Shown here piece by piece: positions 2,529 through 37,046 of a stretch of 64,000 nt of DNA; position 1 is the first letter of the stretch; each line of letters starts with the position of its first letter. Made by a program: the position numbers and the translations under genes. The notes under the pieces were generated by a model. It made no database searches. It worked only from the letters and a program-made list of their open reading frames with translations, and was not told the DNA's origin. Source of the stretch: an uncultured Gemmatimonadaceae bacterium. Lineage in GTDB: Bacteria > Gemmatimonadota > Gemmatimonadetes > Gemmatimonadales > Gemmatimonadaceae. The DNA lies in the NCBI GenBank assembly GCA_963829055.1, contig CAWHHI010000012.1:384001-448000 (forward strand). The letters run 5' to 3'.

Positions 2529-5096
2529 TCAGACGGCTACGGCTTCCTCGGGCTCCGGGCTAACGACGTCCCATTCATTGCCACACTTGACGCACTTTCG
2601 GAACTCGCCCCGAGTCTTGTTCGACTTCATCTCGGCGCCGAGGTATCCGCATTCCGGGCACTTCTCGGGTACCGGCTTGTCCCAACACACGAAGTCGCAG
2701 TTCGGATAGTTGGAGCAGCCGTAGAACGCCTTGCCACGTTTCTTGGAGCGACGCTCGGCGATCTCGCCGCCGTCTTTCGGACAGATCACGCCCGTGGGCA
2801 TCGACCGTGTCCCACGACACTTCGGAAAGCGACTGCAACCGAGGAAAAAGCCGGACCGGCCGTCACGTTTGAGCATTGGCGCGCCGCACTCGTGACATAT
2901 GTACGACGTTGGCTCGGCTGGCTTGCGGTCACCCTTGAGGGGTCGGGTGAACTTACACGTCTTGGGGTGGTTCTCACAGGCGACGAACGGTCCGAAGAAC
3001 CCGCCTTTGGCCATGAGTCGGCCGCCGCAGTCCGGGCATTTCTCCGTCGCCAGCGCCGACAGGTCATGCGCCTCGGCGATGAGGCTCTCGACCTGCACAG
3101 AATTGAGGGACTTCTCGAACGGGCCATAGAACTCGCTGAGGACGCGCCGCCACGGCATGGCGCCTTCCTCGATCTTGTCGAGCTCGCCTTCCATCCCCGA
3201 GGTGAAGCCGACGTTGAAGATGTCGGGGAATTGCTTCACCATCACGCGTTCGACACTCTCGCCTAACGACGTCGGGAAGAACCGCCGCTGTTCGAGCTGC
3301 GTGTAGTGGCGATCTACCAGAGTGGAAATAATCTGGGCATAGGTAGAAGGGCGGCCGATCCCGAGTCGCTCGAGCTCTTTCACGAGGCTCGCTTCCGAGA
3401 AGCGTGGGGGCGGCTCGGTGAAGTGCTGTGAGGGCGTGATCTCACGCACCGGGACACAGCTGTCCCTTTTCCAGCACGGGCAGCGCCTGCTCGTCTTCCA
3501 GGGCGCGGTGGTCGCCTTCCTCGTGCGTCTCGCGATAGAGCGCGAGGAAGCCGGGGAACTTGATCACGCTTCCCGTCGAGCGGAATAGATACGTGTGGGA
3601 CGTCTGGATGCCGACGTCCGCCTGGGCGAGGTCGTAGTCGACCGTGGTCGTGTCGAACACCGCCGGCGCCATCTGCGACGCCATGAAGCGCTGCCAGATG
3701 AGCTGGTAGAGCTTGAACTGGTCGTCCTTGAGATAGCGCCTAACGAGATCCGGCCGGCGTGACGGGTCGGTCGGTCGAATCCCTTCGTGCGCGTCCTGCG
3801 CGTTCTGCGCGTTGTTCTTGCCGCCGCCATAGAGCATTGGCGACGCGGCGAGATAATCCGCGCCGAACAGGGTGCGCAGGTGGTCACGCGCCTGGAGCGC
3901 GGCACTCTCGGCCACACGCGTCGAGTCCGTGCGCATGTACGTGATGAGCCCGACCGCGCCCTCGGCGGGGCCGATGTCGATGCCCTCGTAGAGGTCCTGC
4001 GCGAGACGCATCGTGCGCTTCGACCCGAAGCTGAGCTTCTTCGCGGCTTCCTGCTGCAGCGTGCTGGTCGTGAATGGCGGCGACGAGTTCTTGCGACGCT
4101 CGCGGCGCTTTACCTCGGTGACCGGGAATGCCCCGATCACTTCCCCGTTCGGCGAACGCTGATCACGTCGAGCGACAGCCGCGGCTACGCGCTCGACTTC
4201 ACCGACCATGGCCTGCGCGTCGGGCCCGTTACCAATCTCCGGCTTCTTGCCGTCGACGTGATGGAGCTTCGCCGTGAAGCGCTGCGCGTTCGCCTCGAGC
4301 TGTGCCTCGATGGTCCAATACTCGACCGCCTTGAACGCGCGAATCTCTCGCTCGCGCTCGACGATCAGCCTGAGCGCGACCGTTTGCACGCGGCCCGCGG
4401 AGATGCCCTTCTTGACCGTCTTCCAGAGGATTGGGCTCGCCTTGTAGCCGACGAGTCGATCGAGCACGCGTCGCGCCTGCTGGGCTTCGACCTTCTTGTC
4501 GTCGATCTGGCCGGCATTCGCGATAGCGCGCTGCACGGCGTCCTTCGTGATCTCATGGAACATCACGCGCCGCACGGGGGCCCCGCCGCGCCGCTTGATC
4601 TGTTCCGACACGTGCCAGGCGATCGCTTCGCCTTCCCGGTCAGGGTCGGTCGCGAGGAAGACTTCCTTGGAATCGTGCGCGGCAGACTTGAGATCCGCGA
4701 GCGTTTTCTCCTTTCCCGAGATGGTGACGTACTCGGGCTCGAAGCCGTTCGCGATGTCGATACCGAGCTTCTTCTCAGGCAAGTCCCGCAGATGCCCGAC
4801 GGTCGCCTTCACGCGGTAGCCACGACCAAGGTACTTGCCGATGGTCTTGGCTTTCGCGGGCGATTCGACGATCACGAGCGACGTCGAACCGGCGGGTGCC
4901 GGTGTCGCATCGTCCTCGCCCGGAACGGTCGCGGCGACCTTGCGGCCGCGCGCTTTCGTCGCGGCCTTCTTCTTCGCCGCTGGACGGCGACGAGGCGTCT
5001 TGGCCGCCGGGCGCGCGGCGCTCCCGCGCCCCGCTACCCGACGGGTGCGACTGGTTCTTCGGTCGATTCGGACGACGGTTCCTTCTTTCGGGCCAT
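2529..5096 (-). CDS. topA: DNA topoisomerase I; frameshift near 3445 and probably near 5035
   Basis: IVESPAKAKTI, ATDPDREGE, SAGRVQ, GLITYMRTDS (ORF 3442-4875); GIGRPSTYA and C4 zinc ribbons (ORF 2529-3449); upstream ATG at 5096. Confidence 0.93.
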
Positions 5097-5100
5097 TCTG

Positions 5101-5535
5101 TCAGTGAACGGTAGCGTGATCGGACGACGGGCCGGACGGGTCGTACCCTGAACCCTCCATAAGCGCCCGCAGGTCGTCGAGCGCAATACGACCATCGATC
5201 TGCATGAGCGCCCGCTCGATCACGTGCTCGAGCTCGGCGGTGGTCAGCGCCCCGGAACCGGTGAGCGTCAGCAAGTGGCCCCAGGCATCAGGGGCGAACC
5301 GACCACGCTCGTGCGGGCCCATCACGCGAAAGGTCATGTGGTTGTGAACGACCGACTGAGCGCCGGTCGCGCGAATAGGAATCTCTGAGAACAGCAGCGA
5401 CAGAATCTCACCAATCTGGCGCCTATCGTACCCTTCGTACGACAAAAACGCTTCGACCTCCTCGACGTTCGCGTCTGCGGCGAACCGCTCGCGCAACACC
5501 GACAGGAGGTCTGCCAACCGATCATCCATGGCCAA
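5101..5535 (-). CDS. smg: DUF494/Smg family protein
   Basis: Size, RVMGPHERGRF...ELEHVIERAL pattern, and the typical position upstream of topA. Confidence 0.7.
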   Translation of the reverse strand: MAMDDRLADLLSVLRERFAADANVEEVEAFLSYEGYDRRQIGEILSLLFSEIPIRATGAQSVVHNHMTFRVMGPHERGRFAPDAWGHLLTLTGSGALTTAELEHVIERALMQIDGRIALDDLRALMEGSGYDPSGPSSDHATVH

Positions 5536-5537
5536 AC

Positions 5538-6107
5538 CTATCCGGCCTTTATAGTAGAGGCAAGCTCGACGAGTTTATCTACAACTCTTTTCACGTCAAG
5601 CAGTTCCGCGCTTACGACGTGATCCGCCTGGGCATAGAGCTTTTCGCGGTCCACGAGAAAACGCTTGAGCTCAGCGAGCGGATCAGGCCTGGAAAGTAGC
5701 GGCCGGGCCGAGCGCTGGGAGCCCAAACGGGCGAGCGCGGTTTCCGGCTTGACCTTGAGATAGAGCAGGATCGCCGGCGGTCGAATGATCTCGACCACGC
5801 CCTTGTTGGTGACCCAACCACCACCCGGCGCGACGACCATGTTCCCGCACTGCCGGAGCTCCAGCGTCAGCTCCTGCTCGAGCTGGCGGAAGTACGGTTC
5901 GCCGCGGACCGCGAAGATCTCGGAGATCGTAGACCCTTCGCGGCGCTCGATCTCGCGATCGAAATCGAGAAACGACCGGTTCAGCCGCTCGGCCAGTGCT
6001 TCGCCGACGACGCTCTTTCCCGCGCCGGGCAGCCCGACGAGGATGAGGTGTGGCTTCCCGACTTCAACGTCGGAGACGTTCTGCGACGTGCGAAAGATAG
6101 CTGTCAT
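5538..6107 (-). CDS. aroK: Shikimate kinase
   Basis: GLPGAGKS P-loop, DFDREIE, GEPYFR, GGG, RPLL. Confidence 0.95.
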
Positions 6108-7255
6108 AGTTGCGCCTCGTTTCCGCGAGCGAATCGCCGCCGAACTTTTCGAGAGCCGCCTGCGCCAATACGAACGCCGTCATCGCTTCCGCAATGACGC
6201 CCATGGCTGGGACGGCGGTCACGTCGCTGCGCTCCGCCGTTGCCGACGCGCTCTCCCCTGTCGCTACGTCCACGGTCGCCAACGGGCGCATGAGCGTGCT
6301 GATAGGCTTCATGGCCACCCGCAACACCAGTGGCTCCCCCGTTGTCATGCCGCCTTCGAGCCCTCCGGCTCGATTCGTCCTGCGACGAACATTGCCTGCC
6401 AGCGTTCGGCCCGGCGCCGGCTCCATCTCGTCGTGCACGTCGGCTCCAGTGCGTCGTGCTGCCTCGAACCCAATGCCGACTTCTACTCCCTTGACGGCCG
6501 GAATGGACATGAGCGCGGCAGCGAGCCGGCCGTCCAGCTTTCGATCCCACGACACGTGAGACCCGAGCCCCACCGGTAACCCGCGACACACGACTTCACA
6601 GATGCCACCGAGCGTGTTGCCTTCCCGCTTGATCGCATCGATATGCGTAATCATCACCGCCTCAGCGGCACGGTCAAGCGTCCTGAGCGGCGACGCATCG
6701 GCCGCGCCGTTGATGTCATCCGGCAGCGGATCCGGCACGCTCGCGTCGATGCCGCCCAGGTGCACGAGGTGACTTCCGATCTGCACGTCGAGCTCGGACA
6801 AGCAGCCGCTTGCAGATCGCCCCCGCCGCGACGCGCGCGGTCGTCTCGCGTGCGGACGCACGCTCGAGGATGTCGCGTGCATCATCGCGGTCGTACTTGA
6901 GTAGACCCGTGAGGTCCGCGTGTCCCGGACGCACGCGCGTCACGGCGCGGCGGCGCGGATCAGGATCTCCATCGCGCGGCGCCGCATCCATCACGTCCTG
7001 CCAATTCTTCCAATCGCGATTCGCTATGGACATCGCGATCGGCGAACCGATCGTCTGGCCCGCCCTAACGCCTGAAAGAAACTGCACCACATCGGATTCG
7101 ATCTGCATCCGCCGGCCGCGCCCGTACCCCTGTTGGCGTCTCGAGAGCTCGACGTCGACATGCTCGGCCAGAAGCGGAAGCCCGGCCGGCATTCCTTCGA
7201 GTACGCTGACGAGCGCCGGCCCGTGTGATTCTCCAGCGGTGGTGAAGCGCAACAT
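6064..7255 (-). CDS. aroC: Chorismate synthase (frameshift ~6800)
   Basis: [26 protein letters not shown] in one frame; [21 protein letters not shown] in another. Confidence 0.95.
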
Positions 7256-7277
7256 GACGATGGTATCACCTTAAATG

Positions 7278-7306
7278 CGCGAGCCCGACCAAGGCCGGGC
7301 TCGCGA
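7278..7306 (-). terminator. GC-rich hairpin between the lipoprotein gene and aroC
   Basis: cgcgagccc-N~10-gggctcgcg. Confidence 0.4.
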
Positions 7307-7336
7307 GTCAATGCGGATCAGCGGAGCTGTGCGTCG

Positions 7337-9785
7337 CTATTTGATATCGCTCGCGTGCACATCAATCATAACCAATCCTTCCGGCGTCAACCCGAACAGC
7401 TTCACGACCAGTGAGGCATCGGCTGCTTTCTCGGCCGTCGTCGGGTATACCGCGCGGAGCGGTCCATAGAGATTGCTGCGAATCGGAATGCGACCACGCA
7501 GTCGGTAGCTGTAGCTGTCGACGATCTGGATCGAGAAGTCACCCGAGGCGACGAACGCGACGCGCGCGGAGAGATCGGCGGTCTGCTCGTCCACGTTTCC
7601 GGGGTGGAACGCCACGCCAGCACCCGCGGCGAACGTAGCGTACTTGCCCTGCAGGCGCAGCGCCGAATCGGAGAAGAACGTCTCGACGCCGTGCACCACG
7701 ATGTTCGTACTGTTGTTGTTGATCGCGAGACCGAACACCCGGTCCGACGCGTTGTTGGTCAAATCCTTCACTTCGATCGGCGGCGAGTACTGCTCGCTGT
7801 ACGCGGGAGTTCCGCTCGGGTCGAACACGACGACGACCCGACCCGCGCCGCCACCGGTGTTCGCTTCGCCGAACGCGACACGCCGACGATCGCCGCCAAC
7901 AGCGACGAAGTTGGTATCGGGCAGCGCGAGCGAGCCGACGCTCAGGTCCTTCACGTCATCGGCGTTCGCGCCGAGCGCGCGCAGCGCCGCAATGGCCCCG
8001 GGGATCGTCGCGTCCTGGACGCACTGGCTGGTGCTCGGATCCGCACCTACCGCGTGATCGCAGACGATGATCGAATCCGGCACGCCATTCTGGCCGGCGA
8101 GCACGTCGACGTCGTCGGCGTTGAGGATGACCCAGCGACCGCGAGCGATCGTACCATACTGCCAGATCTGACGCGGCTCAGCGCGCGGATCGAGGAAGTT
8201 GTCGATGCGGCGGAGCGTGCCCGGAGAAGCTTCCTGCGTGGGACGCGTCGAGTAGTAGAGCGCACCGCTTGCCGACTGCGCGATGATACTGCGGGCGGTC
8301 GGAGTAGTCGATCGGCGCGGACACGCTGTACTTGTAGCCGCCGCTCGTCTGGTCCTTCGACCAGCTGACGTCGAAGATATACGCGTTCGCGGTCTTGATG
8401 CGGCCAGACTCGCTGCGGCTCGCTAGGTCCACGCGGCTGATGTTCGTGCCGCCGGAGTTCGCGACGAGCAGCATGGAACCGCTGTTGTCGATCGCCATGC
8501 CCCATGGCTGCGCGCCGACGGACACCGCGGCCAGCTTGGACACCGTGGCGCCGTAGTCGAACGCCTCGAGCTCGTTCTTGTTGATGTTCGAGACGTAGAC
8601 GCGAGACCGCACGGTGTCGACGGCGATGTCCGCACCGAGGCTGCCGACGGGCAGGCTCGTGGTATGGCCGAACGCGAAGACCGTAGGATCGCGTTTCGCG
8701 ATGGCGTCGCTCGAGGTCGGAATGTTCGCTCCGCTCGCGACGGCAAAGCCCTTGTGGTTCGCCTGATCGACGGCGTACCCGATCACGAACAGCCCGCGTC
8801 CGCGCAGGGTTGCCGGGACGTTCCATTCGATGCGTCGCACGACCTGCTGCGCCGGCGTGGCGATCGGAATCTCGAACGAGCCGACCTGCAAGCCGGTCGA
8901 GTCCTTCACGATGTACCCCAGCGCCTTGATCAGCCCGTCCGGGTCGCGGCCGGTGAGATCCAGTGAGTCGCCGGCCTCCATGCGGGGCGGGACGGTCTGA
9001 TAGACGAGCGGGGTCTGCGTGTCGGCGCCGGGCGCCCCGACGCGGACGGTCATGGCGTCACCCGTGCCTTGCAGCCCGTTCCGGTTTTCGGCAAACGGTG
9101 TGACGGTGAACGTCGCGCCAACAGCGACGGACGACGGCACGGTGAACGAGAAGGTGACCGTGTCGTTCTTTGGGTAGGGCACCGAGAAGAGCGAACTATC
9201 CGAACGCGTCAGCGCGGACGGCCCACTCGACCGGTACCCGAGTTTGGTGATGCCGAGCGTGTCGATACCCTGCACGCTGAGCGTGTAGGTGCCGCCAGCA
9301 ATGACGGCCGCGTCGGGATTCAGGAGGAGGACGCCTGGAATCGTCGGATCGAACGCGACAGCGGTGACCTCGGCGGTTCCCTTGTTGCCGCCGGCATCGA
9401 TGACGGTCGCGCGAATGATCATCGCTCGCCCCGAGGGAACGCCCGAGAGCTGCAACTTGGAACTGCGCGAGACTGTATTCAAGCCGGCGGTCGTCGCGAC
9501 GCTATCGGCCTTGAGGACCGTGCCGTCAACGACGACACTCGTCACGATCGCCTGGATCGCGGCGTTGTCGGTCGCGTTCACCGTCACGCTGAGCGGCAAG
9601 CGAATGTTCACCGAGTCGACTTTCGGTGGCGCGTTCTTCACGCCTTCCACCGAGAGAGTCACCGTCGGGACGATGAGATCGCCCGACGATGAGGTGAGAT
9701 TGGTACTGTCGCAGCCCGCGAGCGCGGCGGCCAGCACGCCAGCAGACAGCGCACCGGGTGCCGCGCGACGAACGAAGTGATTCAT
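7337..9785 (-). CDS. Large lipoprotein with beta-rich (Ig-like) N-terminal region and YncE/YVTN-like propeller; frameshift ~8290
   Basis: Lipobox LAGC; RVYVSN, VGAQPWGMAI, LLVANSGGTNISRVDL; ORFs 8178-9785 and 7337-8104 join. Confidence 0.65.
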
Positions 9786-9819
9786 CAGAGGAGATATCGA
9801 GGGAAGATTCCGGATTCGA

Positions 9820-11742
9820 TCAGCGGGCGCCGCCGGGGGGCCGAACAGCCTCCCCTTCGTCGATGATGTGCGGGGTGATCAGCACGAGCAGGTCGCGCTT
9901 CTCTTCGCGGCTGTCCGTCTGCGAGAACAGCTTGCCGATGAGCGGCAGCTGGCTGAGGATCGGAATGCCGGAGCGGTTGCGAACGACCTGGGTCTGCGTG
10001 AGACCGCCGATGACCGCGGTCTCGCCGTCGGCGACGAGGAGCTGGTTGTCGGCGCGGCTCTTGTCGAAGAAGAACCCGAGGTCACCACCGACGACGTTCA
10101 GCCGCGATTGCTCGGCGTGGACGGTCATGCGGATCTGGCGGTTGCTCGTGATGTGCGGGGTGACGCGGAGAATGATGCCGCTTTCCTTGAACTGCACGTT
10201 GGCGCGGGCGGTAACGCCGACCTGGCCGGCGCTTCCCGCGTCGATCACGCGGATCGGCGTTTCCTGACCGACGAGAATCTCCGCCATGCGATTGTCGAGC
10301 GTGACGATGCTCGGTTCGGCCTGGAGGTCAGCGAGGTTTTCCTCGTGCAGCGCGTCGAGGAACGACGTTAGGCTGTAATTGCCAATGGCTGTAGAGAACA
10401 GGAGACTGAGCGCGGATCCGACGCGGTACTTGCGGCTCGCGTTCGCGATGCCGGCGAGCGCCTCACCACCGAGCTGCACCTGGGACTCGAGGGTGGACGC
10501 CGGCTGGCCCGGGTACGAGTGCGGCGCGAGCGTGTTGAAGTAGGCAGCCGGGCTGGCGAGGTCGTAGCTGATACCGAGATTCTCGATCGACGTGCGGTTG
10601 ACCGAGATGATCTTGGCGCGCAGCGCCACCTGTGGCGTGCGGACATCGAGGTTCTTGATGTAGCTCATCAGGTCCGGCATCCGCGACGCAACCTCGGTGA
10701 CGAGGAGCGTGTTCGTCGATGTGTCGGCGACGACGCCGCCGCGGACGATGCACGTCGCAGCACCGACAACGTTCTGCTGGTTACCGCCACCCGCACCCGA
10801 CGCCGCGGTTGTGAGACCGGCCTTGGAGCAATCCTTCGAGAGAAGCGAGGCGATCGTCTGCACGAGCGACGACGCGCTCGCGTAATTGACCGCGACGAGC
10901 TGCGTAGTCAGCGGCTCGTTCGCTTCCTTGGCGAGAATGTTCGCGTAGCTATCCACCGAGATGATCCCGGTGTTCTCTTCCGACGCGGCGAGACCCTGCG
11001 CCTGCAGGATCGCCTGCAAGGCGACATCCCACGGCTGATCCTTGATCTCGGCGGTAACCGTGCCCTGAACGTCGCGGCCGATCACGATTGTGCGCTGCGA
11101 GAACGACGCGAACGCCGCGATCACGTCGCGGATGTCGGAGTTCTGATAGGTGACGGTGATACGCGGCTGCTGTGAGCGCTGCGGATTGAACGTCAGCTTC
11201 TCGCGCGCCGCGGCAGCCGCGGTCGTGCGCGCACCGTCGTTGCGCGTCTCGGCGGCCACGCTGCCCGCCGACGCGGCGGCGACCCGATCGCCGGCGTGCC
11301 AGGCGACGAACTTCTCGGCGCCGACGACGGCGATGCGAATCTCGTTGTCATGGCGCGTCACTTCATACTCACGGCTGGCGTCGAGCTCCAGCACGAGGCG
11401 GACGACGTCCGGCTTGTACTGGGCGAGCCTAACGTTGGTGATACCCGCGCGGGATATCTTGTCGTACATCTGCAGGGGCAGGCCCAGACGCGCGCCGGTC
11501 AGGTCGATCACGACGCGATCGGGACCCGTCAGCACGAAATCAGAGACGTCGACGGGACCACTAATGCCCACGACCACTTCAGCACGTCCCGAGGACGGCA
11601 CGATGCTCACGCCAGTGACGGCGTTGACGCCCTCACGAGCGCGGGCGGGTGCGGGGGCCGTGACGTGCGCGGCGCTCGCGCGGCCGGCGCTCCCGAGCAG
11701 GGCGGCGGCCGTCAGTGCGACCAGCGTACAGACTCGACTCAT
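9820..11742 (-). CDS. pilQ: Type IV pilus secretin with AMIN domain
   Basis: AMIN motifs PDRVVIDL and VRLVLEL; secretin motifs PSIVTLDN, ILRVTPHI, GIPILSQLPLIGKLF. Confidence 0.95.
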   Translation of the reverse strand: MSRVCTLVALTAAALLGSAGRASAAHVTAPAPARAREGVNAVTGVSIVPSSGRAEVVVGISGPVDVSDFVLTGPDRVVIDLTGARLGLPLQMYDKISRAGITNVRLAQYKPDVVRLVLELDASREYEVTRHDNEIRIAVVGAEKFVAWHAGDRVAAASAGSVAAETRNDGARTTAAAAAREKLTFNPQRSQQPRITVTYQNSDIRDVIAAFASFSQRTIVIGRDVQGTVTAEIKDQPWDVALQAILQAQGLAASEENTGIISVDSYANILAKEANEPLTTQLVAVNYASASSLVQTIASLLSKDCSKAGLTTAASGAGGGNQQNVVGAATCIVRGGVVADTSTNTLLVTEVASRMPDLMSYIKNLDVRTPQVALRAKIISVNRTSIENLGISYDLASPAAYFNTLAPHSYPGQPASTLESQVQLGGEALAGIANASRKYRVGSALSLLFSTAIGNYSLTSFLDALHEENLADLQAEPSIVTLDNRMAEILVGQETPIRVIDAGSAGQVGVTARANVQFKESGIILRVTPHITSNRQIRMTVHAEQSRLNVVGGDLGFFFDKSRADNQLLVADGETAVIGGLTQTQVVRNRSGIPILSQLPLIGKLFSQTDSREEKRDLLVLITPHIIDEGEAVRPPGGAR

Positions 11743-12408
11743 TTCGTCCTCGCTTGATTTGAATCATCCATCGCCAGCTCCTGCTGACGGCTGAAACCGA
11801 ATTCCTCGATCGTGAACGTCACCGCTTTCTGCGAGATGCGGGCGACGCGCATGCGGCCGATTTGTTGCCCAACTTTGATGCGGTATTGTTCGTGGCTCGT
11901 GACATCGCGAAGGATCGCCACCGAGTTACGACCGGCGGGATCGATCAGAATCCCGCTGATCGTCAGGTCGCTGATCATCGGGCGAAGCTCGCCGATGGTC
12001 ATGAGCGAGACGAAGGGGTCGCGACGACCGCTCTGCTCGTAGGCGTAGACTTCGCGACGCAGCACGACCCTGCCTGCGGTGTCCATCGGTGCGCTGGCGC
12101 GCGTTGCCGCGCCTGCCGCGCGTCGCCCGCACCCCGCGCGAGCGCGACGTGTCCGCGGGACTCTCGACCACGCGCTTGGCAGCGCTCGAGGAGGAGCCCC
12201 CGCGCACGTTCGCGCTCGCGGCAGACGCCGCGGCATTCGCGCTGTCGACGTTCGTCATCGCCAGCGTGTGCGTGTTGGTCTTCGCGACCGCCGAGTTGGT
12301 GGTCTGTTTGATCCGCGAAATGTTAGGCAGCGACTGCGCCTGGGTCGTCGCGACCGCGGTGGTCGAGACGATCGCGAGCGCACCGGCCAGAACGAGGCGA
12401 CGCATCAT
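11739..12408 (-). CDS. pilP: PilP-like pilus assembly protein (frameshift ~12130-12230)
   Basis: Signal peptide, YAYEQSGRRDPF, KVGQQIG; lies between pilO and pilQ. Confidence 0.7.
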
Positions 12409-13037: not shown

Positions 13038-13046
13038 GGTAGCCTC

Positions 13047-13772: not shown

Positions 13773-13795
13773 CGGAGTTCGGTCGCGGTGAAGGA

Positions 13796-14839: not shown

Positions 14840-15330
14840 AGCGAGGGTGCCGAGTCGAGGTGGATCGTGCGACGCCGACGAAGGCGCCGTGCTGTCGTTG
14901 CCATCGCCCTGCATGCGCCGCGGACTGACCGATCGTTCCGCTCCGCGCATCGCCGGACCAGCCTAACGTGACACAGTCGCCCGGGCGAGCTACACCACGG
15001 CAACCGATGACAAGAGGCATTTTGACCACAGGCCCGGTCGAATCTGCCAACAACACGATTGCGCGTTGCCGCTGGTAACAGCGTGTGACGCCACACGTTC
15101 GGACGTGCATCGTTGTGTGTTGAGAGTCACGCTAACAGCGTGGGAATAACCACGCGTGAAGGGTTTTCCCGGGAGAAGTACACCCATACCTCTCACGACG
15201 ACGCACGCGCCTCACGCGGTACCGTCGCGCGGCGATGTGACGCACGGCACCACGCACCGTCCGACTCGACACCCGGCATCACAGCGCCGTCGTTATGCAA
15301 GCACGTCGTGACGGCGCGCGACATGACGCG

Positions 15331-17743: not shown

Positions 17744-17872
17744 GCCGACCAAGATGGGCGGCATGCCTCGGGTGTCGGCATCGTTCGCGCTCCGTTGTCA
17801 TCGTTTTCCTCCGCGTCGCGCCTCGTTATGCGCGAGCTGCCGCGGTCCCAGTAGGCGACCTACGGGATGCAA

Positions 17873-17903: not shown

Positions 17904-17934
17904 TCCTGCACCGCTGGGAAACCGCTCAGGCGCG

Positions 17935-18432: not shown

Positions 18433-18446
18433 AGTACAGCAAGAGC

Positions 18447-27794: not shown

Positions 27795-27908
27795 ATTGCG
27801 CTGAAGTAGACTTCGGGGGATCTATGGCATTCTGCTACGATCTGGACGATCTGGTTTGGAGGTTGTTTCCGAGTGCAACTGGCTGAGCATCTGAGCTTTG
27901 GCGCGTAC

Positions 27909-29240: not shown

Positions 29241-29258
29241 AGGGACAGTGTGGACTGC

Positions 29259-29535
29259 AACGGCTTTGACAGGATGGGCAGAATGGGCAGGATGACGGCA
29301 ACGGCAACGGCAACTACATGACAGGATTGGCAGGATGGACAGGATTGAACAGAGGCTCCGTGTCGCGCCCAACGTCCCTCCCGCAACGAGCCCAGTGTGA
29401 GAGGAACGGCCGCTCAGGACGCCACTCGCTCCGAGATGTGTTCCCACATTCGTTAGGCCCCGGCGACACGCTCCCCGACGCCGAGACAGTCATCCTGCCA
29501 ATCCTGCCAATCCTGGCCATCCTGTCAAAGCCGTT
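29259..29535. repeat. MITE/REP-like element with inverted termini built from 9-bp CAGGAT(T/G)GG units
   Basis: aacggctttgacaggatgggcagaatgggcaggatgac ... gtcatcctgccaatcctgccaatcctggccatcctgtcaaagccgtt. Confidence 0.75.
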
Positions 29536-29569
29536 TCGTAGTTTCCTGTCCGGCAGATAGCGCCGACCA

Positions 29570-30007
29570 ATGATCGACGAATCCACCGAGGGCCTTCGCG
29601 TCAACGACAGTGTCGTCATTCCTCGTGACGAGCTCGCGACGCGCGCGTCCCGCGCTGGCGGTGCGGGCGGGCAGCACGTGAACACGTCGTCCACGCGCAT
29701 CGAGCTGCTGTGGAACGTCGGCACGACGCGCGCGCTGTCGGAAGAGCAGCGCGCGCGCGTGTTGCAGAAGCTCTCGTCGCGGCTGGACAGCGAACAAACC
29801 GTTCGTGTCGTGGCGAGCGATCGGCGGAGCCAGCGTCAGAATCGCGAGAGCGCCGAAGAACGGCTGGCCGATCTCGTGCGCGCCGCGCTCGTCGTCCCGA
29901 AGAAGCGTCGGCCAACGAAGCCGAGTCGCGCGGCGAAGCAGGCGCGGCTGGATTCGAAGAAACGAACGAGCGACAAGAAGCGCCAGCGGCGCTGGCAAGG
30001 CGACTGA
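29570..30007 (+). CDS. arfB: Alternative ribosome rescue peptidyl-tRNA hydrolase
   Basis: GGQHVN, RSQRQN, basic tail KRRPTKPS. Confidence 0.95.
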   Translation: MIDESTEGLRVNDSVVIPRDELATRASRAGGAGGQHVNTSSTRIELLWNVGTTRALSEEQRARVLQKLSSRLDSEQTVRVVASDRRSQRQNRESAEERLADLVRAALVVPKKRRPTKPSRAAKQARLDSKKRTSDKKRQRRWQGD

Positions 30008-30160
30008 GCGTCGGCGTGGCTCACGGACGCATGACGGGCTGTCTGCGACATGCCCGATTGGAAAGGGGGCTCACCAATCCTGCATGAAGCAAACAGCCCG
30101 TCAACAGACGTCGGCCGTACTCCGGCGCCTAACGCACGACGCCGGTCCAGTGTGGCTCTC

Positions 30161-30886
30161 TCAGTGCGTCGGAATCCCGATCGACACGCCGAAGCGATAG
30201 GTGACGAAGTTCGCTTCGCTCCGGATCGGATTGATGACGATGCTCCCGTCCGGCCTGTCCCTGATGCTTCCCTCGCGGAGGTACGTCGCTTCGCCGTTCC
30301 GGTGGAACGTAGCACCGAGATCGAGGAGCACCGGCGTGCGACCCAGGAACAATGGGATCATGAAGCCGCCACCGCCTGTGAGCGCGAACACGACATCGTC
30401 GTGATTCGTCGTATCGAACAGATTCTCGGCGTCGTTGTTCCCGCTCAGCGATGAATGCGTGAAGAAGTAGCTCATCCCCGCCGTAGCGTTGATGTATGGA
30501 CGCAGCGGCCCGGCGGGAACAGTGATCTGCGGGCCGATGCCAGCGAACGCGATGTCGTTGCTCGTGTTCACATTCACGTCGACGCGGCAGCTGAACGGAC
30601 AGATGGTCGTGTTCTCACTGCCGTACTGCAGGAACCCGCCTTCGGCGCGAATGCCGAACACCCGATCGCGATCGAGATTCCAGACGAATCCGCCGGTGAC
30701 GCCGTACCCCTGACCGATGAAATCATTGAAAGCGCCAATGGGCTGCGCGACGGCGAAATTGATGTCGCCGTAGGCACGCGGAAGCGTCGCGTCGGTGCGG
30801 CGGGCCGGCGTACCCTGTGCCGAGAGCGTCGATGCGATTGCACTCGTGAGTACGAGCGCGCTGAAAATGCGAGGTGCGCGAAACAT
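30161..30886 (-). CDS. Putative outer-membrane beta-barrel protein
   Basis: Signal peptide, alternating strands, C-terminal YRFGVSIG. Confidence 0.6.
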   Translation of the reverse strand: MFRAPRIFSALVLTSAIASTLSAQGTPARRTDATLPRAYGDINFAVAQPIGAFNDFIGQGYGVTGGFVWNLDRDRVFGIRAEGGFLQYGSENTTICPFSCRVDVNVNTSNDIAFAGIGPQITVPAGPLRPYINATAGMSYFFTHSSLSGNNDAENLFDTTNHDDVVFALTGGGGFMIPLFLGRTPVLLDLGATFHRNGEATYLREGSIRDRPDGSIVINPIRSEANFVTYRFGVSIGIPTH

Positions 30887-31085
30887 GAGACCCGTTAGGT
30901 AGAGTCGCCGCAGGAGACGCGGCTTCTGGTTTCGAAGCAATACGTCCCCGCGCATTGAACGTTTCACGATCGACGTCGGCCGTCCCTGGGCGATGATACC
31001 GCTCGATCGCGCAAAAAGTGCCCGAAGGCAAACTGCTGAACCCATCGGGCACTGCGGGCGTCACCGGCCGGTCGTTCCGCTCAAC

Positions 31086-33638
31086 TCACCACGGAATGTC
31101 CTCACCGAACGGATCACCCGGCGGCGGACGAAGTGCCGGGCTCGGCGTCGGAAGCTCGCGACGCTCGATCCAGCGTACGAAGTCGCCGGCAAGGCTCGCG
31201 AAGTGCGCGCGCTGCTCGACCGTGCCCGCGCGTGACTGGCTGCGCGCTCGCGGCAGCAGCTCCGTGATCTTCAGCTCCGCCATCGCCCGGACCTCCGGCG
31301 CCGCACCGCTGTCGGCGGCGAGCGAGAGCAACCGGTCGGCGACAGCGCGCTGTGCGACGCGCGACAGCGCCGCCATCTTCGGCGAGGCGGGAGCGGCACG
31401 ACCCCATGTTCCATCGATGAGCGCGTCGATCGTCTGCGCCAGCGTTAGGCTGCGCTCGCCGTACGCCCCCTGCTGCACGAGACGGGCAGCCCGTTCGCGT
31501 TGGAGGACGCCGTCGACGATCATCTGCGCGAGCGTGCGGGCGGCGCCGAGCTCATCGAATGCCGGTCGAGTGCGCGTTCCGAACAGCTCGACGGACCCGC
31601 TGTACGAGAATGGCCGCGGCGCGAGCAGCGTCAGGACGGTGTCGGGGATCGCGAGCTCCGCTGGCTGTAGTCCCGCGACGAGCGCGGCAAGCGCCTGTCG
31701 TTGCCGCGCGGCACTGACTGGGCGCGATGCCTGCTGGCCATCGCCCGCGAGCGCGTTGCTGTACTCGAGCCCTCCAACCGCCTTCGTCGTGGAGTTGATC
31801 GCGAAGCGGTGGAAGAAGTAGAGCGGCGCAAAACGCTCCTGCAGCAGCGCCACCGGCTCGCCGGGTCGAAGATTCGCGAGTCCGAATCGGCTCATCGCCA
31901 CGCGGCGTACGTCCGTCTGATGCCGAAGGAATTCCAGCTCGGTCGCGGCGTCGTCCCAGAGATTCGTGCGCGGGTCCGAGGCGAAGTCGGGACGTGCGTC
32001 GTTGTCGGAGAGAAACAGATAGCCTTTGCGCAGCCCCTCGCGCACGATGGCGTCGAGCGAGTCTCGCTCGCTTGCCGCCGGGAACGTTCCGTACGCCCAG
32101 TGCACTGCCCACACGTCATAGGGGCCCGGGCCGCGGTCATAGGCGGCGCTCAGGTCGATCTGACCGGCGGCGTTGAGCCTAACGCGCGGTGCCGGATAGT
32201 CCATGACTGACCCGCGCTCGTACGTGCTGGCGATGTAGTTGTGCGCCATGCCGATCGTGTGGCCGATCTCGTGGGCCGTCACCTGACGGATGCGCGCGAG
32301 AATGAACGCGGTGTCCGCGGCCGCCGGCGCAGCGCCCACCAGGGCCGCGTAGATGTTGTAGTCGGTGCGATTGCGATGCGAGTCCATGTGGGCGACACCC
32401 TTGATGATCTGCCCGGTGCGTGGATCGCCCTGCGAGCCACCGAACGACCAGCCGCGTTCGTTGCGGTTCACCCACATCACCGCGTTATAGCGAGCGTCCA
32501 TCGGGTCGGCGTCGGCAGGTAGCATCTCCACGCGGAACCCTCCGCGAAGTCCGGCCTGGTTGAACGCCTCCTCCCAGAACCGAGCCCCCTGCACCGTCGC
32601 GGTCCGCAACGGTTCAGGAATGCCCGGGTCGATGTAATAGATGATGGGCTTCCGGAACCCGCTGTTCGGATCGTTAGGGTTCGTGCGCTCGAGTCGGTGG
32701 CGCGAGATCCAGCGCTGCTCGAGCGAGCCCTGGATCGGCTGTGAGTAATCCTTGAATGTGATACCGAAGAATCCGACGCGCGGATCGAGCACGCGCGGCC
32801 GGTAGCCCGCGTCAGGCAACTGCACGAACGAGATGTGTTGTCGCAGCGTAAACGCGCGGCCGTCAGGCACGATGGATGAGACGGTGCCGCCGGGCCTGCC
32901 CTGCGCCGCGAACGTCAGCGCGACGTCGATCTCCGTGTTCTCGGGAAATGCTTTCGTGTGGGCCCGGTCGATGCTCGAGCGGTCGCGCGCGAAGGAGTAG
33001 TTGCCCTCGTTGCTCCCCGCGAGCGTCCCACTGATGTCGAGCCAATCGCGGTACACGAAGTCGGTCGCGTCGACCAGCAGGCGACCGCCCTCGACGGCGA
33101 GCAGCGGCAGCGCCGCAACGGTGCTCGCTGGAAACGACTCGGCCACGGTCTTCGCCAGGCCGGCGTCGCTCTGCGACGTACCGCGATAGCTCCAGTTCTC
33201 GAAGACCACCAGGACGTGGTCGCCGTTGCGGTCGAAGCGGGCAACCTGGTCGGGCCCGTTGGCGCCGCGGTCGATGCCGATCGGATTGGAGCCGAGCCCG
33301 GTGGATTGCAGGAAGAACGCGAGCACGCGCAACGAGTCGCGCGGGATCTCGAGAAAGAGTCGCCCCTGACGATCGTCGAGATAGATCGGGATGAGACCGT
33401 CGCGGCGCTCCATACCCGTTGTCCGCGAGGCAATGCTGGTCGCGATCGGTGCGGCCTGCCCCGATCCCCCGCCGCTGCCCGCCGGAGCGTTAGGCGACCC
33501 GCCACCCTGGGGAGCGGCGGTCTCCGGCACGCGCGCCGGAGCAGGCGTGGGTGACGGGGTCGCGGACTTGCACCCCGCGATGATCAGCGTCGCGATGATG
33601 AGCGTCGCGACGGCCCCGAGCGAACGAGCTGCACGCAT
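31086..33638 (-). CDS. Zn-dependent metalloprotease lipoprotein (DUF5117/DUF4953-type)
   Basis: Lipobox IAGC, DPRVGFF, HEIGHTIGMAHN, Met-turn SVMDY. Confidence 0.88.
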   Translation of the reverse strand: MRAARSLGAVATLIIATLIIAGCKSATPSPTPAPARVPETAAPQGGGSPNAPAGSGGGSGQAAPIATSIASRTTGMERRDGLIPIYLDDRQGRLFLEIPRDSLRVLAFFLQSTGLGSNPIGIDRGANGPDQVARFDRNGDHVLVVFENWSYRGTSQSDAGLAKTVAESFPASTVAALPLLAVEGGRLLVDATDFVYRDWLDISGTLAGSNEGNYSFARDRSSIDRAHTKAFPENTEIDVALTFAAQGRPGGTVSSIVPDGRAFTLRQHISFVQLPDAGYRPRVLDPRVGFFGITFKDYSQPIQGSLEQRWISRHRLERTNPNDPNSGFRKPIIYYIDPGIPEPLRTATVQGARFWEEAFNQAGLRGGFRVEMLPADADPMDARYNAVMWVNRNERGWSFGGSQGDPRTGQIIKGVAHMDSHRNRTDYNIYAALVGAAPAAADTAFILARIRQVTAHEIGHTIGMAHNYIASTYERGSVMDYPAPRVRLNAAGQIDLSAAYDRGPGPYDVWAVHWAYGTFPAASERDSLDAIVREGLRKGYLFLSDNDARPDFASDPRTNLWDDAATELEFLRHQTDVRRVAMSRFGLANLRPGEPVALLQERFAPLYFFHRFAINSTTKAVGGLEYSNALAGDGQQASRPVSAARQRQALAALVAGLQPAELAIPDTVLTLLAPRPFSYSGSVELFGTRTRPAFDELGAARTLAQMIVDGVLQRERAARLVQQGAYGERSLTLAQTIDALIDGTWGRAAPASPKMAALSRVAQRAVADRLLSLAADSGAAPEVRAMAELKITELLPRARSQSRAGTVEQRAHFASLAGDFVRWIERRELPTPSPALRPPPGDPFGEDIPW

Positions 33639-34089
33639 GTGGTCGGTGTGTGTCGGTCAATGAAGGGAGGTATCGTGAGCGACGGCGAATGTCTGCCCGG
33701 TGCTGGGCGGGCGCAAGCGAGTGGTCGCGGTTAACTGGGAGTTTCCGTTAGAGCAGAACTGCTTCGACACACATCCAGAATCGAGAGTGTGAACGGAAAC
33801 ACCCGGAAACACCTGAAACGGCCCGATCCGATCGCGACCCGGACAGATCGTGGAGCGGCGCTCATCGAAAAGGGAACGGCTTCGTGAGACCATGCGTCGC
33901 CGAGCCGTCCCCCTTTCAATGGCGGCTCATTGCGTCGTCGCCTGTGCCGTCATGCGACCGATCCGCCCGATCCGCTGTTTCCGGCCGTTTCGGCCAGCAC
34001 GCTGGGTTCTGGATGCTTGTCGAAGCAGGGCTCGGGATCTTCGGTGGTGATTGCTGCTTGTGTTCCAGCATCCAGCGACCGAAATCGGC

Positions 34090-34332
34090 CTACCGCCTGA
34101 GCATGTCCCGCAGGACGATCAGGATCAGGACGATCGCGATGATGCTGAAGCAGATCGACGATATGCTCCAGCCGACGCCTGGTCGCGAAGCGGCGGCGAC
34201 GCTGAGACCGAGCGCTCCGATCGCGATCGCGAGCGGAGACACCCAGGCAGGAATGCGAGAGCGCTCTCGGCGCGACGCCAGCCACAGCAGTGCCGCGCCA
34301 ATGAGGAGAGTTGCCGCCAACGCCAGTCGCAC
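34090..34332 (-). CDS. Small membrane protein
   Basis: 80 aa with three hydrophobic segments. Confidence 0.5.
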   Translation of the reverse strand: MRLALAATLLIGAALLWLASRRERSRIPAWVSPLAIAIGALGLSVAAASRPGVGWSISSICFSIIAIVLILIVLRDMLRR

Positions 34333-34374
34333 CTGACCGCCCCCGCTCGTGAAGCCGTGTCGCGATCGCTGGCG

Positions 34375-35082
34375 CTAGTTCGCGTCGGCGATGATCGACA
34401 GTGCGGTCGGTAGACCGCCGCCGGGCGCGTCCGTCAGCAGCAACGTGCGCACCGAGCCGCTGGCGAGCGTGAGATTACCGGAATCGACGATCACAGTACC
34501 GGACGCACCAAGCCGCGTGACGCGAACGCGGTAGGTTCCCGGCATCACCGCGGCGTAGTCAGAGGAGGCCGCGAAGACGAGGAGCGGGATGACAGGCGTC
34601 GCGGACGAGAGATCCGTTGTCGGCGCGGTCACGTACACCGAGACCGGTCCCGGAGCGGCGGCGACATGGACGATGCGGAGCGTCGCCTGGCCCGCGGGTG
34701 CCGTCGGGTTGTCGGCAATGAACAGCGCGCCGAACTGCCCGAGGCCGGGCGCCGGAATCAGGCTGAACGCGCCCTGGCTGTTGAGGTCTCGCGTGAAGTC
34801 GACGAGCGTCGTGCCGGTGTTGGTGGCCTGTGCCTGCAGACGGTGCGACCCCAGCGTCACCGGGACGTAGGGTGACGCCGAACCGAAGCCGACCGCCGAT
34901 GATGCCACCTGTGCGTCGACAACGAACGACAGGGACGGCGAAGTCGTGAGCGCATTCAGCAGCCGTACGCTGACACCGTCCACGGGGCCAGTGACCAGCA
35001 CACCACTCGCGCGCCCATCGCAGGCGACCGACGTGGCAACAAGCAGCAGAGCGGAGACGGTCGTACGGAGTCGACGGCGCAT
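34375..35082 (-). CDS. DUF4397-type lipoprotein
   Basis: Lipobox SVAC, VRLLNA, LRIVHVAAAPGPVSVYVT, GTYRVRVT. Confidence 0.75.
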   Translation of the reverse strand: MRRRLRTTVSALLLVATSVACDGRASGVLVTGPVDGVSVRLLNALTTSPSLSFVVDAQVASSAVGFGSASPYVPVTLGSHRLQAQATNTGTTLVDFTRDLNSQGAFSLIPAPGLGQFGALFIADNPTAPAGQATLRIVHVAAAPGPVSVYVTAPTTDLSSATPVIPLLVFAASSDYAAVMPGTYRVRVTRLGASGTVIVDSGNLTLASGSVRTLLLTDAPGGGLPTALSIIADAN

Positions 35083-35239
35083 GGGCGGGGTCCTCGCGTG
35101 GGATCGGTGCCTGGCTACGAACGCTATCGTGGCGAGTGCCCTCGCGTCGGTGAGCGGACTCACCGGCGCCAGGCACCCAATCGCTGACCCTCCACGCTCG
35201 ACCGGCCACCCCGACCAAGGCCGATCAACTGGCGATCCC

Positions 35240-35614
35240 TTACGCTTGTTCGTTGCCGTTGAGGGAACGCGGGTCCGCGGGCGCGACGTCCGCCCGCGAA
35301 GGCGTGGCCCGGCGCTCAGCCGATTTCTCCGCTGAGTCGAGCGAGTCACCGACATTTGCAACACGATGCTGTGCCGACCTGAACCGTGCAACCACCGTGC
35401 TCGCGCGATCGAGTAGCGACTCGAGTTGCATCGGGCTGAGCCCGCGCCAGTCGTCCGGGTAGTGCCACAGCCGCCTAACCTCGAGATCACTCTCGAATCG
35501 CAACCAGGTCGTTCCCGGCGGAACGACCGCCGCGATCGACCGCGCCTCTTCGGCGCCATCTTCCCTAACGATCCAAACCACACCGTCGCTATCGGTGAAT
35601 ACCGTCTTCTCCAT
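35240..35614 (-). CDS. Hypothetical protein
   Basis: FTDSDGVVWIVRE...WLRFES..EVRRLW.YPDDW; RBS-like GAGG. Confidence 0.6.
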   Translation of the reverse strand: MEKTVFTDSDGVVWIVREDGAEEARSIAAVVPPGTTWLRFESDLEVRRLWHYPDDWRGLSPMQLESLLDRASTVVARFRSAQHRVANVGDSLDSAEKSAERRATPSRADVAPADPRSLNGNEQA

Positions 35615-35788
35615 TCGCCCTCATCTGCACTGAAAATCCGGGTAACCGACTGCAAGTAATCCGCCAACCCGCTCGTACACCCGTCGCTTGCCCGAACGTG
35701 GACGGGCAGACTGACCGATCTTCTCGGGTTGATGACGCCGCCGAGCGACTCCGTGCGGAGATGGCGCGAGGCGATTACATCTCGCGTG

Positions 35789-36046
35789 ATGAGCCAGAAC
35801 GGCGACGACCCAGACTACGATCCCGAAGAGGATTTCCCGCTCGGTGACGGCACAGCTGAAACGGAAGCCACCGTGGTGTGTCCCTACTGCGGCGAGGAAA
35901 ACGAGATCGCACTCGACCCCGGCAGCGGCGCCTCGCAGGAGTACATTGAGGACTGTCAGGTGTGCTGCCGTCCGTGGCGCGTGATGGTATCGTACAACGA
36001 GGAGGGCGACGTGCATGTCGATGTGGAGGCCGCCGACGATGCCTGA
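35789..36046 (+). CDS. CPXCG-motif cysteine-rich protein
   Basis: CPYCGE...YIEDCQVCCRP. Confidence 0.88.
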   Translation: MSQNGDDPDYDPEEDFPLGDGTAETEATVVCPYCGEENEIALDPGSGASQEYIEDCQVCCRPWRVMVSYNEEGDVHVDVEAADDA

Positions 36047-37046
36047 GACTCGAGAACGCGTGAGAGAGCCTGCGATGTGGCCAGTCGACCTCGACGCGAT
36101 CGCCAGCGCCCGCGAGCGCATCGCGCCGTACGTGCCACCGTCTCCGCTGCGGAGCTACGGCGTGCTCGACGCCGAGGTGGGGGTCGGGATTCGGGTGATG
36201 GTGAAGCACGAGAACTTCAATCCAACGGGATCGTTCAAGGTCCGTAACGCGTTCTCGTTCATGACGGCGCTGAGCCAGGATGAGCGCCGGTACGGCATCG
36301 TCGCGGCCACGCGCGGTAACCACGGGCTCGGACTGGCGTACGCCGGCAGGACGTTCGACGTCCCGGTCACGATCTGTGTCCCGTTAGGCAACAACCCGGA
36401 GAAGAACGCCGGCATGCGCGCGCTCGGCGCGCGTCTCATCGAGGAAGGGCGCGACTACGACGAGTCGCTGGCCGTCGCCGAGCGTATCGTGCGCGACGAA
36501 GGTGCACGGCTCGCCCATTCGACGAACGACGCCCGCATCATCGCTGGCGCGGGCACCATGTCACTGGAAATGGCGGAGCAGGATCCGACGCTCGACGCCA
36601 TCGTGATATCAGTGGGCGGAGGATCGCAGGCCGTCGGCGCGATGGCGGTGATGCGCGCGCTCCGCCCGAACGTCCGTGTGTACGGGGTGCAGGCGGCCGG
36701 TGCGCCCGCGACGCACGACTCGTGGCACGCGGGCGTGCCGCAGACGACCGACCGCGCGGTGACCATCGCCGACGGGCTGGCGACGCGCAGCACGTACGAG
36801 CTGACGTTCCCTGCCCTCCGCGAGGGACTCGCCGACTTCATCACGGTGACCGAGGCCGAGATCGCGAGCGCGATCCGGCTTCTGCTGCGCACCACGCACT
36901 CGCTCGTCGAAGGCGCTGGCGCGACGGGAATGGCGGGGCTGCTGGCGCTGCGCGAGCGACTCGCGGGCCAGCGCGTCGCCGTCGTGATCAGTGGCGGAAA
37001 CATCGATGCGCAGACGCTGCGTCGGGTCGTGACCCAGGAGATCTGA
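36039..37046 (+). CDS. PLP-dependent threonine/serine dehydratase
   Basis: PTGSFKVR, TRGNHG, VGGGS, IADGL, VEGAGA, SGGN. Confidence 0.9.
   Translation: MPETRERVREPAMWPVDLDAIASARERIAPYVPPSPLRSYGVLDAEVGVGIRVMVKHENFNPTGSFKVRNAFSFMTALSQDERRYGIVAATRGNHGLGLAYAGRTFDVPVTICVPLGNNPEKNAGMRALGARLIEEGRDYDESLAVAERIVRDEGARLAHSTNDARIIAGAGTMSLEMAEQDPTLDAIVISVGGGSQAVGAMAVMRALRPNVRVYGVQAAGAPATHDSWHAGVPQTTDRAVTIADGLATRSTYELTFPALREGLADFITVTEAEIASAIRLLLRTTHSLVEGAGATGMAGLLALRERLAGQRVAVVISGGNIDAQTLRRVVTQEI

Follow-up and report, generated by a model that had tools for sequence, protein, structure and literature searches.

A hyper-abundant DNA word that overrides codon preference in a Gemmatimonadaceae genome, and a candidate AP2-fold protein that may read it

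The DNA analysed here is a stretch of 64,000 nucleotides (the window) from an uncultured Gemmatimonadaceae bacterium (assembly GCA_963829055.1, contig CAWHHI010000012.1, positions 384,001 to 448,000), and the element under study is the non-palindromic octamer CGTTAGGC (GCCTAACG on the opposite strand; the word). The word recurs by the thousand across the source genome, places disfavoured codons in conserved genes, is retained in orthologues, and is depleted within a few hundred bases of its own copies. Across the family it co-occurs with a gene whose promoter carries tandem copies of it and whose small, very basic product has a predicted AP2-like fold. The word is proposed to be the double-stranded binding site of this cytoplasmic protein, which may act as a nucleoid organiser.

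Abundance, codon cost and spacing of the word

The source genome (G000; 7.78 Mb in 20 contigs, 86% complete) was placed with Gemmatimonadaceae through its PilQ neighbours. Genes were called with our own hexamer caller (7,582 genes, 75% coding), which missed some starts and frameshifted genes, and codon counts were restricted to the 4,950 best-called genes. The word was present at 5,004 copies, 49 times the order-2 Markov expectation, with no strand bias (2,547 forward, 2,457 reverse); the shorter forms CGTTAGG and GTTAGG numbered 6,391 and 7,103. The consensus was YGTTAKGY: the base 5’ of the GTTAGG core was C in 90% and T in 7% of copies, the 3’ base was C in 79% and T in 12%, and no additional motif was seen in the flanks of the core. 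A weak variant, CGTTATGC, was enriched 4-fold (583 copies) and avoids strong sites as these avoid each other.

CGTTAGG occurred 45 times in the window, where 100 shuffles gave 2.8 ± 1.5 and never more than 6, and the median gap between cores was 936 bp, with only 2 of 47 gaps below 388 bp. The original prediction had placed the feature between positions 3261 and 36390; the sites there are real, but the feature is genome-wide and not confined to that span.

It had also been predicted that the word forces rare codons into genes in several reading frames. Coding copies used four frames, xLG (1,450), PNx (1,054), xLT (694) and xVR (449), and both stop frames, CGTTAGG containing 210 of 641 TAA and 158 of 1,301 TAG stops. 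The same heptamer contained 1,450 of 2,438 TTA codons (59.5%), 694 of 3,129 CTA (22.2%), 1,054 of 6,928 CCT (15.2%) and 449 of 4,718 AGG (9.5%). Equal frequency of TTA, CTA and AGG outside the motif was checked for and not seen; the forcing is strongest for TTA, and the prediction holds least well for AGG, about 90% of which lies outside the word. Leucine was encoded by TTA in 37% of nCG-Leu-Gly contexts (1,451/3,913) and in 0.3-0.7% where the preceding G or the following Gly was missing. In the 33 confidently called genes of the window, codons inside the word were 8 of 10 TTA, 8 of 27 CTA, 3 of 26 AGG and 5 of 46 CCT. The dipeptide Pro-Asn (PN) outnumbers Asn-Pro (NP) in the genome, 3,253 to 2,869.

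The nine codon readings first reported in the window were all in frame as claimed, with coordinates right to within 1 base and gene names in agreement with NCBIfam matches. These sites, with their state in orthologues of the genus, are as follows:

2030..2037, plus strand: CGTTAGGC in a Ser/Thr kinase gene (1587-2474), minus-strand reading ACG CCT AAC (PN); present in 0/4 orthologues, whose residues there differ
3261..3268, minus strand: CGTTAGGC in the 3’ part of topA (2529-3449), TCG TTA GGC (SLG); position shared by 14/54 aligned sequences across the family
3738..3745, minus strand: CGTTAGGC in the 5’ part of topA (3442-4875), GTT AGG (VR); kept in 5/5
10366..10373, plus strand: CGTTAGGC in pilQ (minus strand), CTA ACG (LT); kept in 4/5
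11427..11434, minus strand: CGTTAGGC in pilQ, GTT AGG (VR); present in 0/6, four of them with the same residues, hence a young site
14360..14367, plus strand: CGTTAGGC in pilM (minus strand), CTA ACG (LT); present in 0/4, all with the same residues, hence a young site
24778..24785, minus strand: CGTTAGGC in pilR, ACG TTA GGC (TLG); kept in 5/5
29053..29060, plus strand: CGTTAGGC in a CNNM/hemolysin-family gene, ACG TTA GGC (TLG); kept in 3/4
36382..36389, plus strand: CGTTAGGC in a threonine dehydratase gene, CCG TTA GGC (PLG); kept in 3/5, the remaining two having a copy 283 bp off
14320..14327, plus strand: weak variant CGTTATGC in pilM, CAT AAC (HN); found again at 15291, 17824 and 19182
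543..63502, both orientations: the dispersed set of 48 GTTAGG/CCTAAC

Conservation and turnover were compared in genus orthologues for 23 window sites, a few of them in doubtfully called genes; codons for the same residue were 62% identical in this comparison. The word was kept in 52 of 92 site-by-genome pairs, so that both retention and turnover were seen. TTA in the word was kept in 28/30 cases and CCT in 13/16, against 17/123 for free CCT, and rare codons outside the word were kept in 351 of 1,703 comparisons. Retention was weaker for CTA (4/13 in the word, 7/67 free), and AGG was kept no better inside the word (8/22) than outside it (22/50).

Copies of the word are rare close to one another. 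Pair density relative to random placement was 0.28-0.36 below 75 bp, about 0.5 at 100-175 bp and 1 by 300-500 bp; the gap was absent from 25 control 7-mers of like abundance (mean about 1.1, minimum 0.81). Synonymous choice was then scored at codons where the word needs a synonymous change only, binned by distance to the nearest other copy. Usage at Leu-Gly rose from 5.5% (<50 bp) through 16, 24, 28, 35, 40, 44 and 48% to 52% (500-1,000 bp; n=3,900), and from <50 bp to 500-700 bp it rose from 4 to 48% at Leu-Thr and from 22 to 79% at Pro-Asn. A term of -3.1*exp(-d/142 bp) in log-odds for each neighbour described the effect, and a linear form that levels off at about 330 bp did nearly as well. 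Neighbours in the same and in opposite orientation had equal effect, no helical phase was present in G000, and opposite-orientation pairs within 50 bp were depleted there as direct ones are, so that inverted pairs were not enriched. Loci of other word-rich genomes showed the identical gap at densities of 0.2 to 2 per kb. Because usage falls near other copies whatever their orientation, selection appears to act on the DNA at a scale of about 140-330 bp; a context-dependent mutation bias would be expected to ignore a neighbour hundreds of bases off, and a single-strand or directional reader to tell orientations apart. Sites lie within 300 bp of 46% of the genome, against 42% under random placement, and selection per site is therefore weak.

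Of the 6,391 CGTTAGG copies, 4,116 are intragenic, fairly evenly spread along genes and in both orientations. Density was 1.93 per kb in convergent spacers, 1.41 in tandem spacers, 0.54 in divergent spacers and 0.82 in coding DNA, and about twice baseline within 60 bp past stop codons. No gene-strand bias was found in G000, and orientation did not skew consistently along its seven largest contigs, the GC-skew switch in C16 included; a pattern search of G000 gave no dif site. One rRNA operon lies in an 8.4-kb word-free stretch, and the other 16S marker has a copy 0.8 kb away.

The original prediction had ascribed these codons to selection or drive on the DNA word and not on the protein, as reported for uptake sequences. 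Its first half is supported on three grounds: copies fall in four coding frames and in both stop frames; rare codons inside the word (TTA and CCT) are kept in orthologues, whereas those outside mostly are not; and usage of the word varies with the distance to the next copy. The likeness to uptake sequences stands, but uptake is not the mechanism favoured here: word-rich and word-poor genomes do not differ in ComEC, PilQ or pil-locus gene content, and it is the gene of a predicted cytoplasmic AP2-fold protein that tracks the word instead.

A candidate reader gene: promoter, distribution, fold and cassette link

Because close pairs of the word are rare, a list of them was used in the search for a reader. 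The candidate is the following:

G000:C3:271467-271769, plus strand, outside the window: candidate reader gene, single copy, 100 aa

The predicted protein has 26 Lys+Arg against 8 Asp+Glu, an isoelectric point of 11.4, Lys/Ala-rich tails and no hydrophobic stretch. Four copies of the word lie within 200 bp upstream of its gene, more than for any other of the 7,582 called genes of G000. The same interval upstream of 30 homologues held 59 copies, against about 7 expected from their flanks. A tandem of GTTAGG just 5’ of a conserved TTGGA-like/TATCTT promoter was present in 25/25 distinct genus-type metagenome homologues with 110 bp upstream, and adjoins what we take to be a sigma-70 -35 box; in other genera one to three copies or none precede the homologue. 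The candidate gene was covered at high identity by contigs from RNA runs in 4 studies; these runs had been picked by means of this stretch, may hold DNA and were not used as evidence of expression level.

Distribution was followed in 301 family genomes, with at least 35 CGTTAGG per Mb as the cut-off for a word-rich genome and E<1e-30 as a strong match to the reader gene. Abundance was bimodal, and status was mostly constant per genus, being split in genus g52 and in two genera that belong to another family. In a tree of four pil proteins (FastTree, unrooted beyond the family outgroup, most outgroup rows dropped) rich lineages lay at four places among poor ones. A strong match was found in 82 genomes, of which 81 were rich (median 343 per Mb); of the 219 others, 199 were poor (median 12). 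When six unpublished genomes (G013, G048, G094, G241, G256 and G278) were left out, 80/81 bearers were rich and 194/214 non-bearers poor. The weak variant CGTTATGC exceeded its reversed control in 19/23 gene-bearing rich genomes and in 0/12 gene-lacking genomes of genera g43, g73 and g52.

Other candidate markers were compared in a panel made up of 37 word-rich and 31 word-poor genomes. ComEC (37/37 rich, 28/31 poor), PilQ (33/36, 31/31), IntI (28/37, 22/31; missing or broken in the richest genus) and the PF02086 methylase (14/37, 22/31) did not track the word, nor did the SAM-4 domain of the integrase. ComEA-like matches were found in 5/5 genomes tested, rich and poor alike, and pil-locus content was alike in rich and poor genomes over 39 loci, a comparison outside which stand four stand-alone pilin-like genes of G000. 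The PF02384 methylase was not found in G000, at its 86% completeness, and PF01555 was found in 1/5 rich genomes; the methylase comparison covers three families in incomplete genomes, and the C5 type was looked at by pattern in G000 only.

The model of the reader protein (predicted local distance difference test score 91.5) has strands at residues 4-9, 14-21 and 35-40 and a helix at 47-61, packed as a three-stranded antiparallel sheet on a helix. Its top structural matches were three Toxoplasma mitoribosome chains (Z 7.0, 6.5 and 6.3), which may be among the four AP2 proteins of that mitoribosome (PMC11652630). Alignment with the AP2 domains of PfSIP2 on DNA (6sy0) gave Z 6.0 and a root-mean-square deviation of 2.3 over 50 aligned residues. 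Foldseek with the same model gave no match at E<=0.001. A profile of the reader retrieved 397 representative proteins, with PF00847 in 13 of 35 scanned; in P0169 (E 2e-8) and the paralogue L238 (E 3.8e-6) it lay across the matched stretch, and an Atlas match at rank 10 (score 0.86) had AP2 in 15% of members. AP2/ERF and ApiAP2 domains, such as Plasmodium SIP2 on SPE2 (PDB 6sy0), share the sheet and helix, and profile relatives of the candidate carry PF00847; unlike them, the candidate reader is a single bacterial domain with Lys/Ala-rich tails, below Pfam detection, and its proposed target is thousands of intragenic sites. Two-domain AP2 paralogues of about 140 aa were seen in genera g64, g65, g68 and g69 (L238, L239, L249; G190, G129, G078), and more distant forms in g54 and family f2 (L240 of G153; L263 of G366).

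The core sites of integron attC recombination sites have the consensus RYYYAAC (R'') and GTTRRRY (R'). In G000 the attC ends are GCCTAACG...CGTTAGGY, with a variant GCATAACG. R''/R' pairing holds for a few copies in the array on contig C20 and not for the thousands elsewhere; hairpin-like paired matches numbered only 102 in the genome, many counted on both strands. The C20 integron (G000:C20:200000-209000) has co-oriented cassettes downstream of an integrase gene, whose product scores low (266 bits) with two catalytic motifs apparently altered, and a truncated second integrase N-terminus lies at C4:2850-3239. One reader homologue, in genome G323, is preceded by a degenerate attC-like element and has its stop codon within GCCTAAC (the R'' box), which opens an 88-bp attC-like hairpin ending in CGTTAGGC; judged by this arrangement of core site, attC and stop in R'', it alone appears to be a cassette. 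Homologues in G343, G333, G023 and one G114 copy end in GCCGCC-stop, as relics, the G343 homologue lying within a run of short co-oriented genes; that of G328 comes after an attC. A two-domain AP2 copy in G190 likewise ends in an R''-like sequence. No intI was found within the fetched loci of reader homologues, and the G000 copy has no cassette ends. In a tree of 62 residues, cassette-like forms lay near the base and f2 sequences nested among those of f1, with weak support. The family probably spread in cassette form, and its first target may have been attC.

Weighing the explanations

The explanation we favour, with moderate confidence overall, is that the word is read by this AP2-fold protein as a nucleoid organiser. 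The protein quite probably binds the word on double-stranded DNA, as the promoter tandem and the co-occurrence suggest, and would repress its own promoter through the tandem copies adjoining the -35 box. Bound about once per kb, it would be a sequence-addressed organiser whose benefit spans a few hundred bp: a new copy would be favoured if none lay within about 300 bp and nearly redundant beside another, and its local benefit would outweigh codon bias. A local benefit of binding is most likely what drives accumulation of the word in gene-bearing lineages; a nucleoid role is our best guess as to the source of that benefit. The gene family would first have moved about in integrons, as a cassette encoding a protein specific for the attC core, and later been fixed in the chromosome. 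More tentatively, and with a good deal less confidence, an attC-core-reading AP2 cassette may have been domesticated more than once as a chromatin protein, with codons and some amino acids rewritten to give a site every ~1 kb with ~300-bp exclusion, and other lineages may have converged with a different reader.

Several observations weigh against this explanation. The candidate was picked by eye, from the close-pair list crossed with 105 small basic proteins, and the tests came afterwards. Structural Z scores below 8 are middling, the protein itself has neither a Pfam match nor a PDB sequence match, and AP2 domains are able to bind RNA (PMC11652630). Fourteen family genomes have at least 150 copies per Mb without a match (six in g52, four in g73, two in g43 and two in g37), and within g52 the contrast between gene and word runs opposite to expectation. 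Twelve of the gene-lacking rich genomes (g43, g52, g73) use a strict GTTAGGC dialect, in which CGTTAGGC makes up 93-98% of CGTTAGG in the three genomes counted, as against 61-85% in most gene bearers. Profiles A2, A3 and PF00847 gave no reader for this dialect (best E 0.095 in the genomes tried), and searches of tandem clusters indicated no shared gene, although short direct GTTAGGC tandems were seen in G053, G083, G165 and G062 (35-102 matches each, mostly at gene ends). With no match in the rich g43, g52 and g73 genomes, at least 12 genomes call for a second reader. G105, G147, G030 and G318 have the gene-type dialect and no match; their bins are fragmented (the three listed have 240-450 contigs), so that the lack of a match may not be a true absence. 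In family f3, 3/4 rich genomes are without a match. Conversely, word-poor carriers comprise G303, ten f2 genomes and G328, and genomes with strong matches in the other two families are poor in 11/12 cases; because 12 carriers are word-poor, the reader gene is not sufficient for abundance. The order-level tallies take in the unpublished G013 and G344, both poor and both without a match. The genomes are kin, so that independence is overstated: the gene-bearing rich set amounts to 25 genera, and only two independent lineages of this kind were placed on the tree. Where a word-poor genome has a lone upstream copy, that copy can be the core site of the cassette and not an operator.

No other hyper-abundant word was seen in the gene-bearing word-poor genomes G374, G338, G303, G377, G343, G323 and G333, in a scan of small samples (14-88 kb per genome) that recovered its positive control. 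An apparent second dialect in locus L072 was rejected as a tandem (CGTCTAT)n repeat; short CGTCTAT arrays, paired and in opposite orientations, lie at L072:18842-19640. Among 31 viral loci no clear word-rich virus was found, at low sensitivity; one viral contig (L192, IMGVR_UViG_3300033067_000767; 56% GC) has 24 GTTAGG/CCTAAC in two clusters, and the candidate gene had a single weak homologue in a virus.

That the word is instead a DNA uptake sequence, recognised by a pilus or periplasmic receptor and maintained by short-fragment recombination, with the AP2 gene a fellow traveller or second user, is in our judgement unlikely. Like the DNA uptake sequences (DUS) of Neisseriaceae and the uptake signal sequences (USS) of Pasteurellaceae, the word is non-palindromic, occurs about once per kb on both strands, is intragenic in several frames, is missing from foreign DNA and rRNA regions, and enriches the peptides that it encodes (PMC2817400, PMC7811141). 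Its density matches that of Haemophilus USS (PMC7811141), the excess of PN over NP recalls the tripeptide effect (PMC2817400), replichore and gene-strand bias are absent, two foreign tracts and the 8.4 kb around one rRNA operon are free of it, and every rich genome of the panel has ComEC. A fragment model also gives orientation-independent saturation and fits about equally well. ComEC, PilQ, ComEA-like and pil-locus genes, however, are present in poor genomes too, so that competence genes do not track the word; a scale of 140-330 bp is short for transforming DNA; and the promoter tandem and co-occurrence of the AP2 gene are left unexplained. Unlike DUS and USS, the word has a shorter core, uses disfavoured codons and shows no excess of inverted terminator pairs; it has a strong gap below 300 bp, a difference for which no DUS or USS genome served as a spacing control; and its candidate reader is cytoplasmic and not a pilin.

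Unlikely too, and ranked next, is that the AP2-fold protein, bound to the word, regulates transcription globally or marks boundaries (at gene ends, or in the control of antisense transcription or read-through) and does not serve in packaging. The high density between convergent genes and past stop codons accords with such a role, as do the transcription factor function of AP2 proteins in plants and apicomplexans and the apparent control by the reader protein of its own promoter. Most copies are nevertheless intragenic and evenly spread in both orientations, and weaker constraint together with stop-codon overlap would equally yield the excess at gene ends.

A DNA methyltransferase or linked repair ratchet that creates and keeps the word, after the manner of HIP1 (GCGATCGC), seems very improbable. 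HIP1 too is an octamer of very high abundance in coding DNA, where selection keeps it and its spacing is non-random (PMC5861425), and its driver is still called undefined (PMC13756078); the word has adenines on both strands, and in G000 a MethyltransfD12 gene, frameshifted, lies at C8:134570-135776. Unlike HIP1 the word is non-palindromic and patchily distributed within a family and even within genera, and a co-occurring methylase was not found in the three families compared. Short-range avoidance also sets the word apart from HIP1 on the Synechococcus plasmid NC_007595, where density at 25-100 bp was 1.5-1.6x (n=95) and so showed no gap; a Nostoc plasmid with 42 HIP1 sites was too small a sample for comparison of spacing.

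Seeding or reading of the word by the integron integrase is as remote, and largely refuted as sole cause: although the word matches the attC core exactly, down to its T/C flanks and GTTATGC variant, most of the copies listed for word-poor genomes form co-oriented arrays 500-600 bp apart, and one reader homologue is itself apparently a cassette, the copies across the genome stand singly in conserved genes, without a partner, abundance does not follow IntI, and genomic insertion by IntI needs only GWT (bioRxiv 2022.09.11.507474).

Genomic context and significance

Within the window, a minor-pilin cluster (PilX/W/V-like) and two pilA genes with identical starts lie at 15331-18854, upstream of pilMNOPQ, and spacers of this region carry words or weak variants at 15291, 17824 and 19182. 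topA is broken into two open reading frames overlapping at 3442-3449 (window 2529-4875), and frameshifted genes are many in the assembly (aroC, pilP, a pilin, the D12 methylase), a pattern that points to indel errors from long reads. Few long genes were called at 50800-64000, yet word density there is as usual, and the segment is probably native DNA, heavily frameshifted. Two word-free tracts at contig starts, of 48 kb (G000:C6:6854-55038) and 37 kb (G000:C11:7377-44055), together L135-L138, have unlike tetranucleotide use and second housekeeping genes, including a second aroC, and probably reflect chimeric joining to the DNA of other organisms; contig C4 begins in a way that looks similar. 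On plasmids 1 and 2 of Gemmatirosa kalamazoonensis, 104 GTTAGG occur in 150 kb, every one followed by C. Further repeated words in G000, such as TCGGAATGACA, GGGATGACA and similar, point to families of intergenic repeats like repetitive extragenic palindromic (REP) elements.

Sites of chromosome-organising systems (matS/MatP, NBS/Noc, SBS/SlmA, KOPS, Chi, IHF and Fis) number tens to hundreds, or are regional or polarised, or degenerate. Such sites resemble the word in being DNA words imprinted on the chromosome and read by a protein (putative here), and autoregulation is typical of nucleoid proteins; unlike them the word is exact, unpolarised and genome-wide in thousands of copies, and unlike Chi and KOPS its orientation is not polarised with replication. 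At the genome level the pattern resembles that of known words, and its novelty lies with the putative reader. No paper on the word or the candidate protein was found in the literature covered, most subscription journals and supplements (methylomes included) lying outside that coverage.

Where hyper-abundant words are known to prevail over codon choice, they have been linked either to the uptake of DNA (DUS, USS) or to methylation (HIP1); a third route may be offered here by a cytoplasmic protein that would bind DNA and whose range of action can be measured. The distance law is a direct readout of selection on single intragenic binding sites, if the word is indeed bound as proposed, and the word flags self DNA and so reveals chimeric contigs in metagenome bins. 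The cassette link would join integron biology to chromosome architecture.

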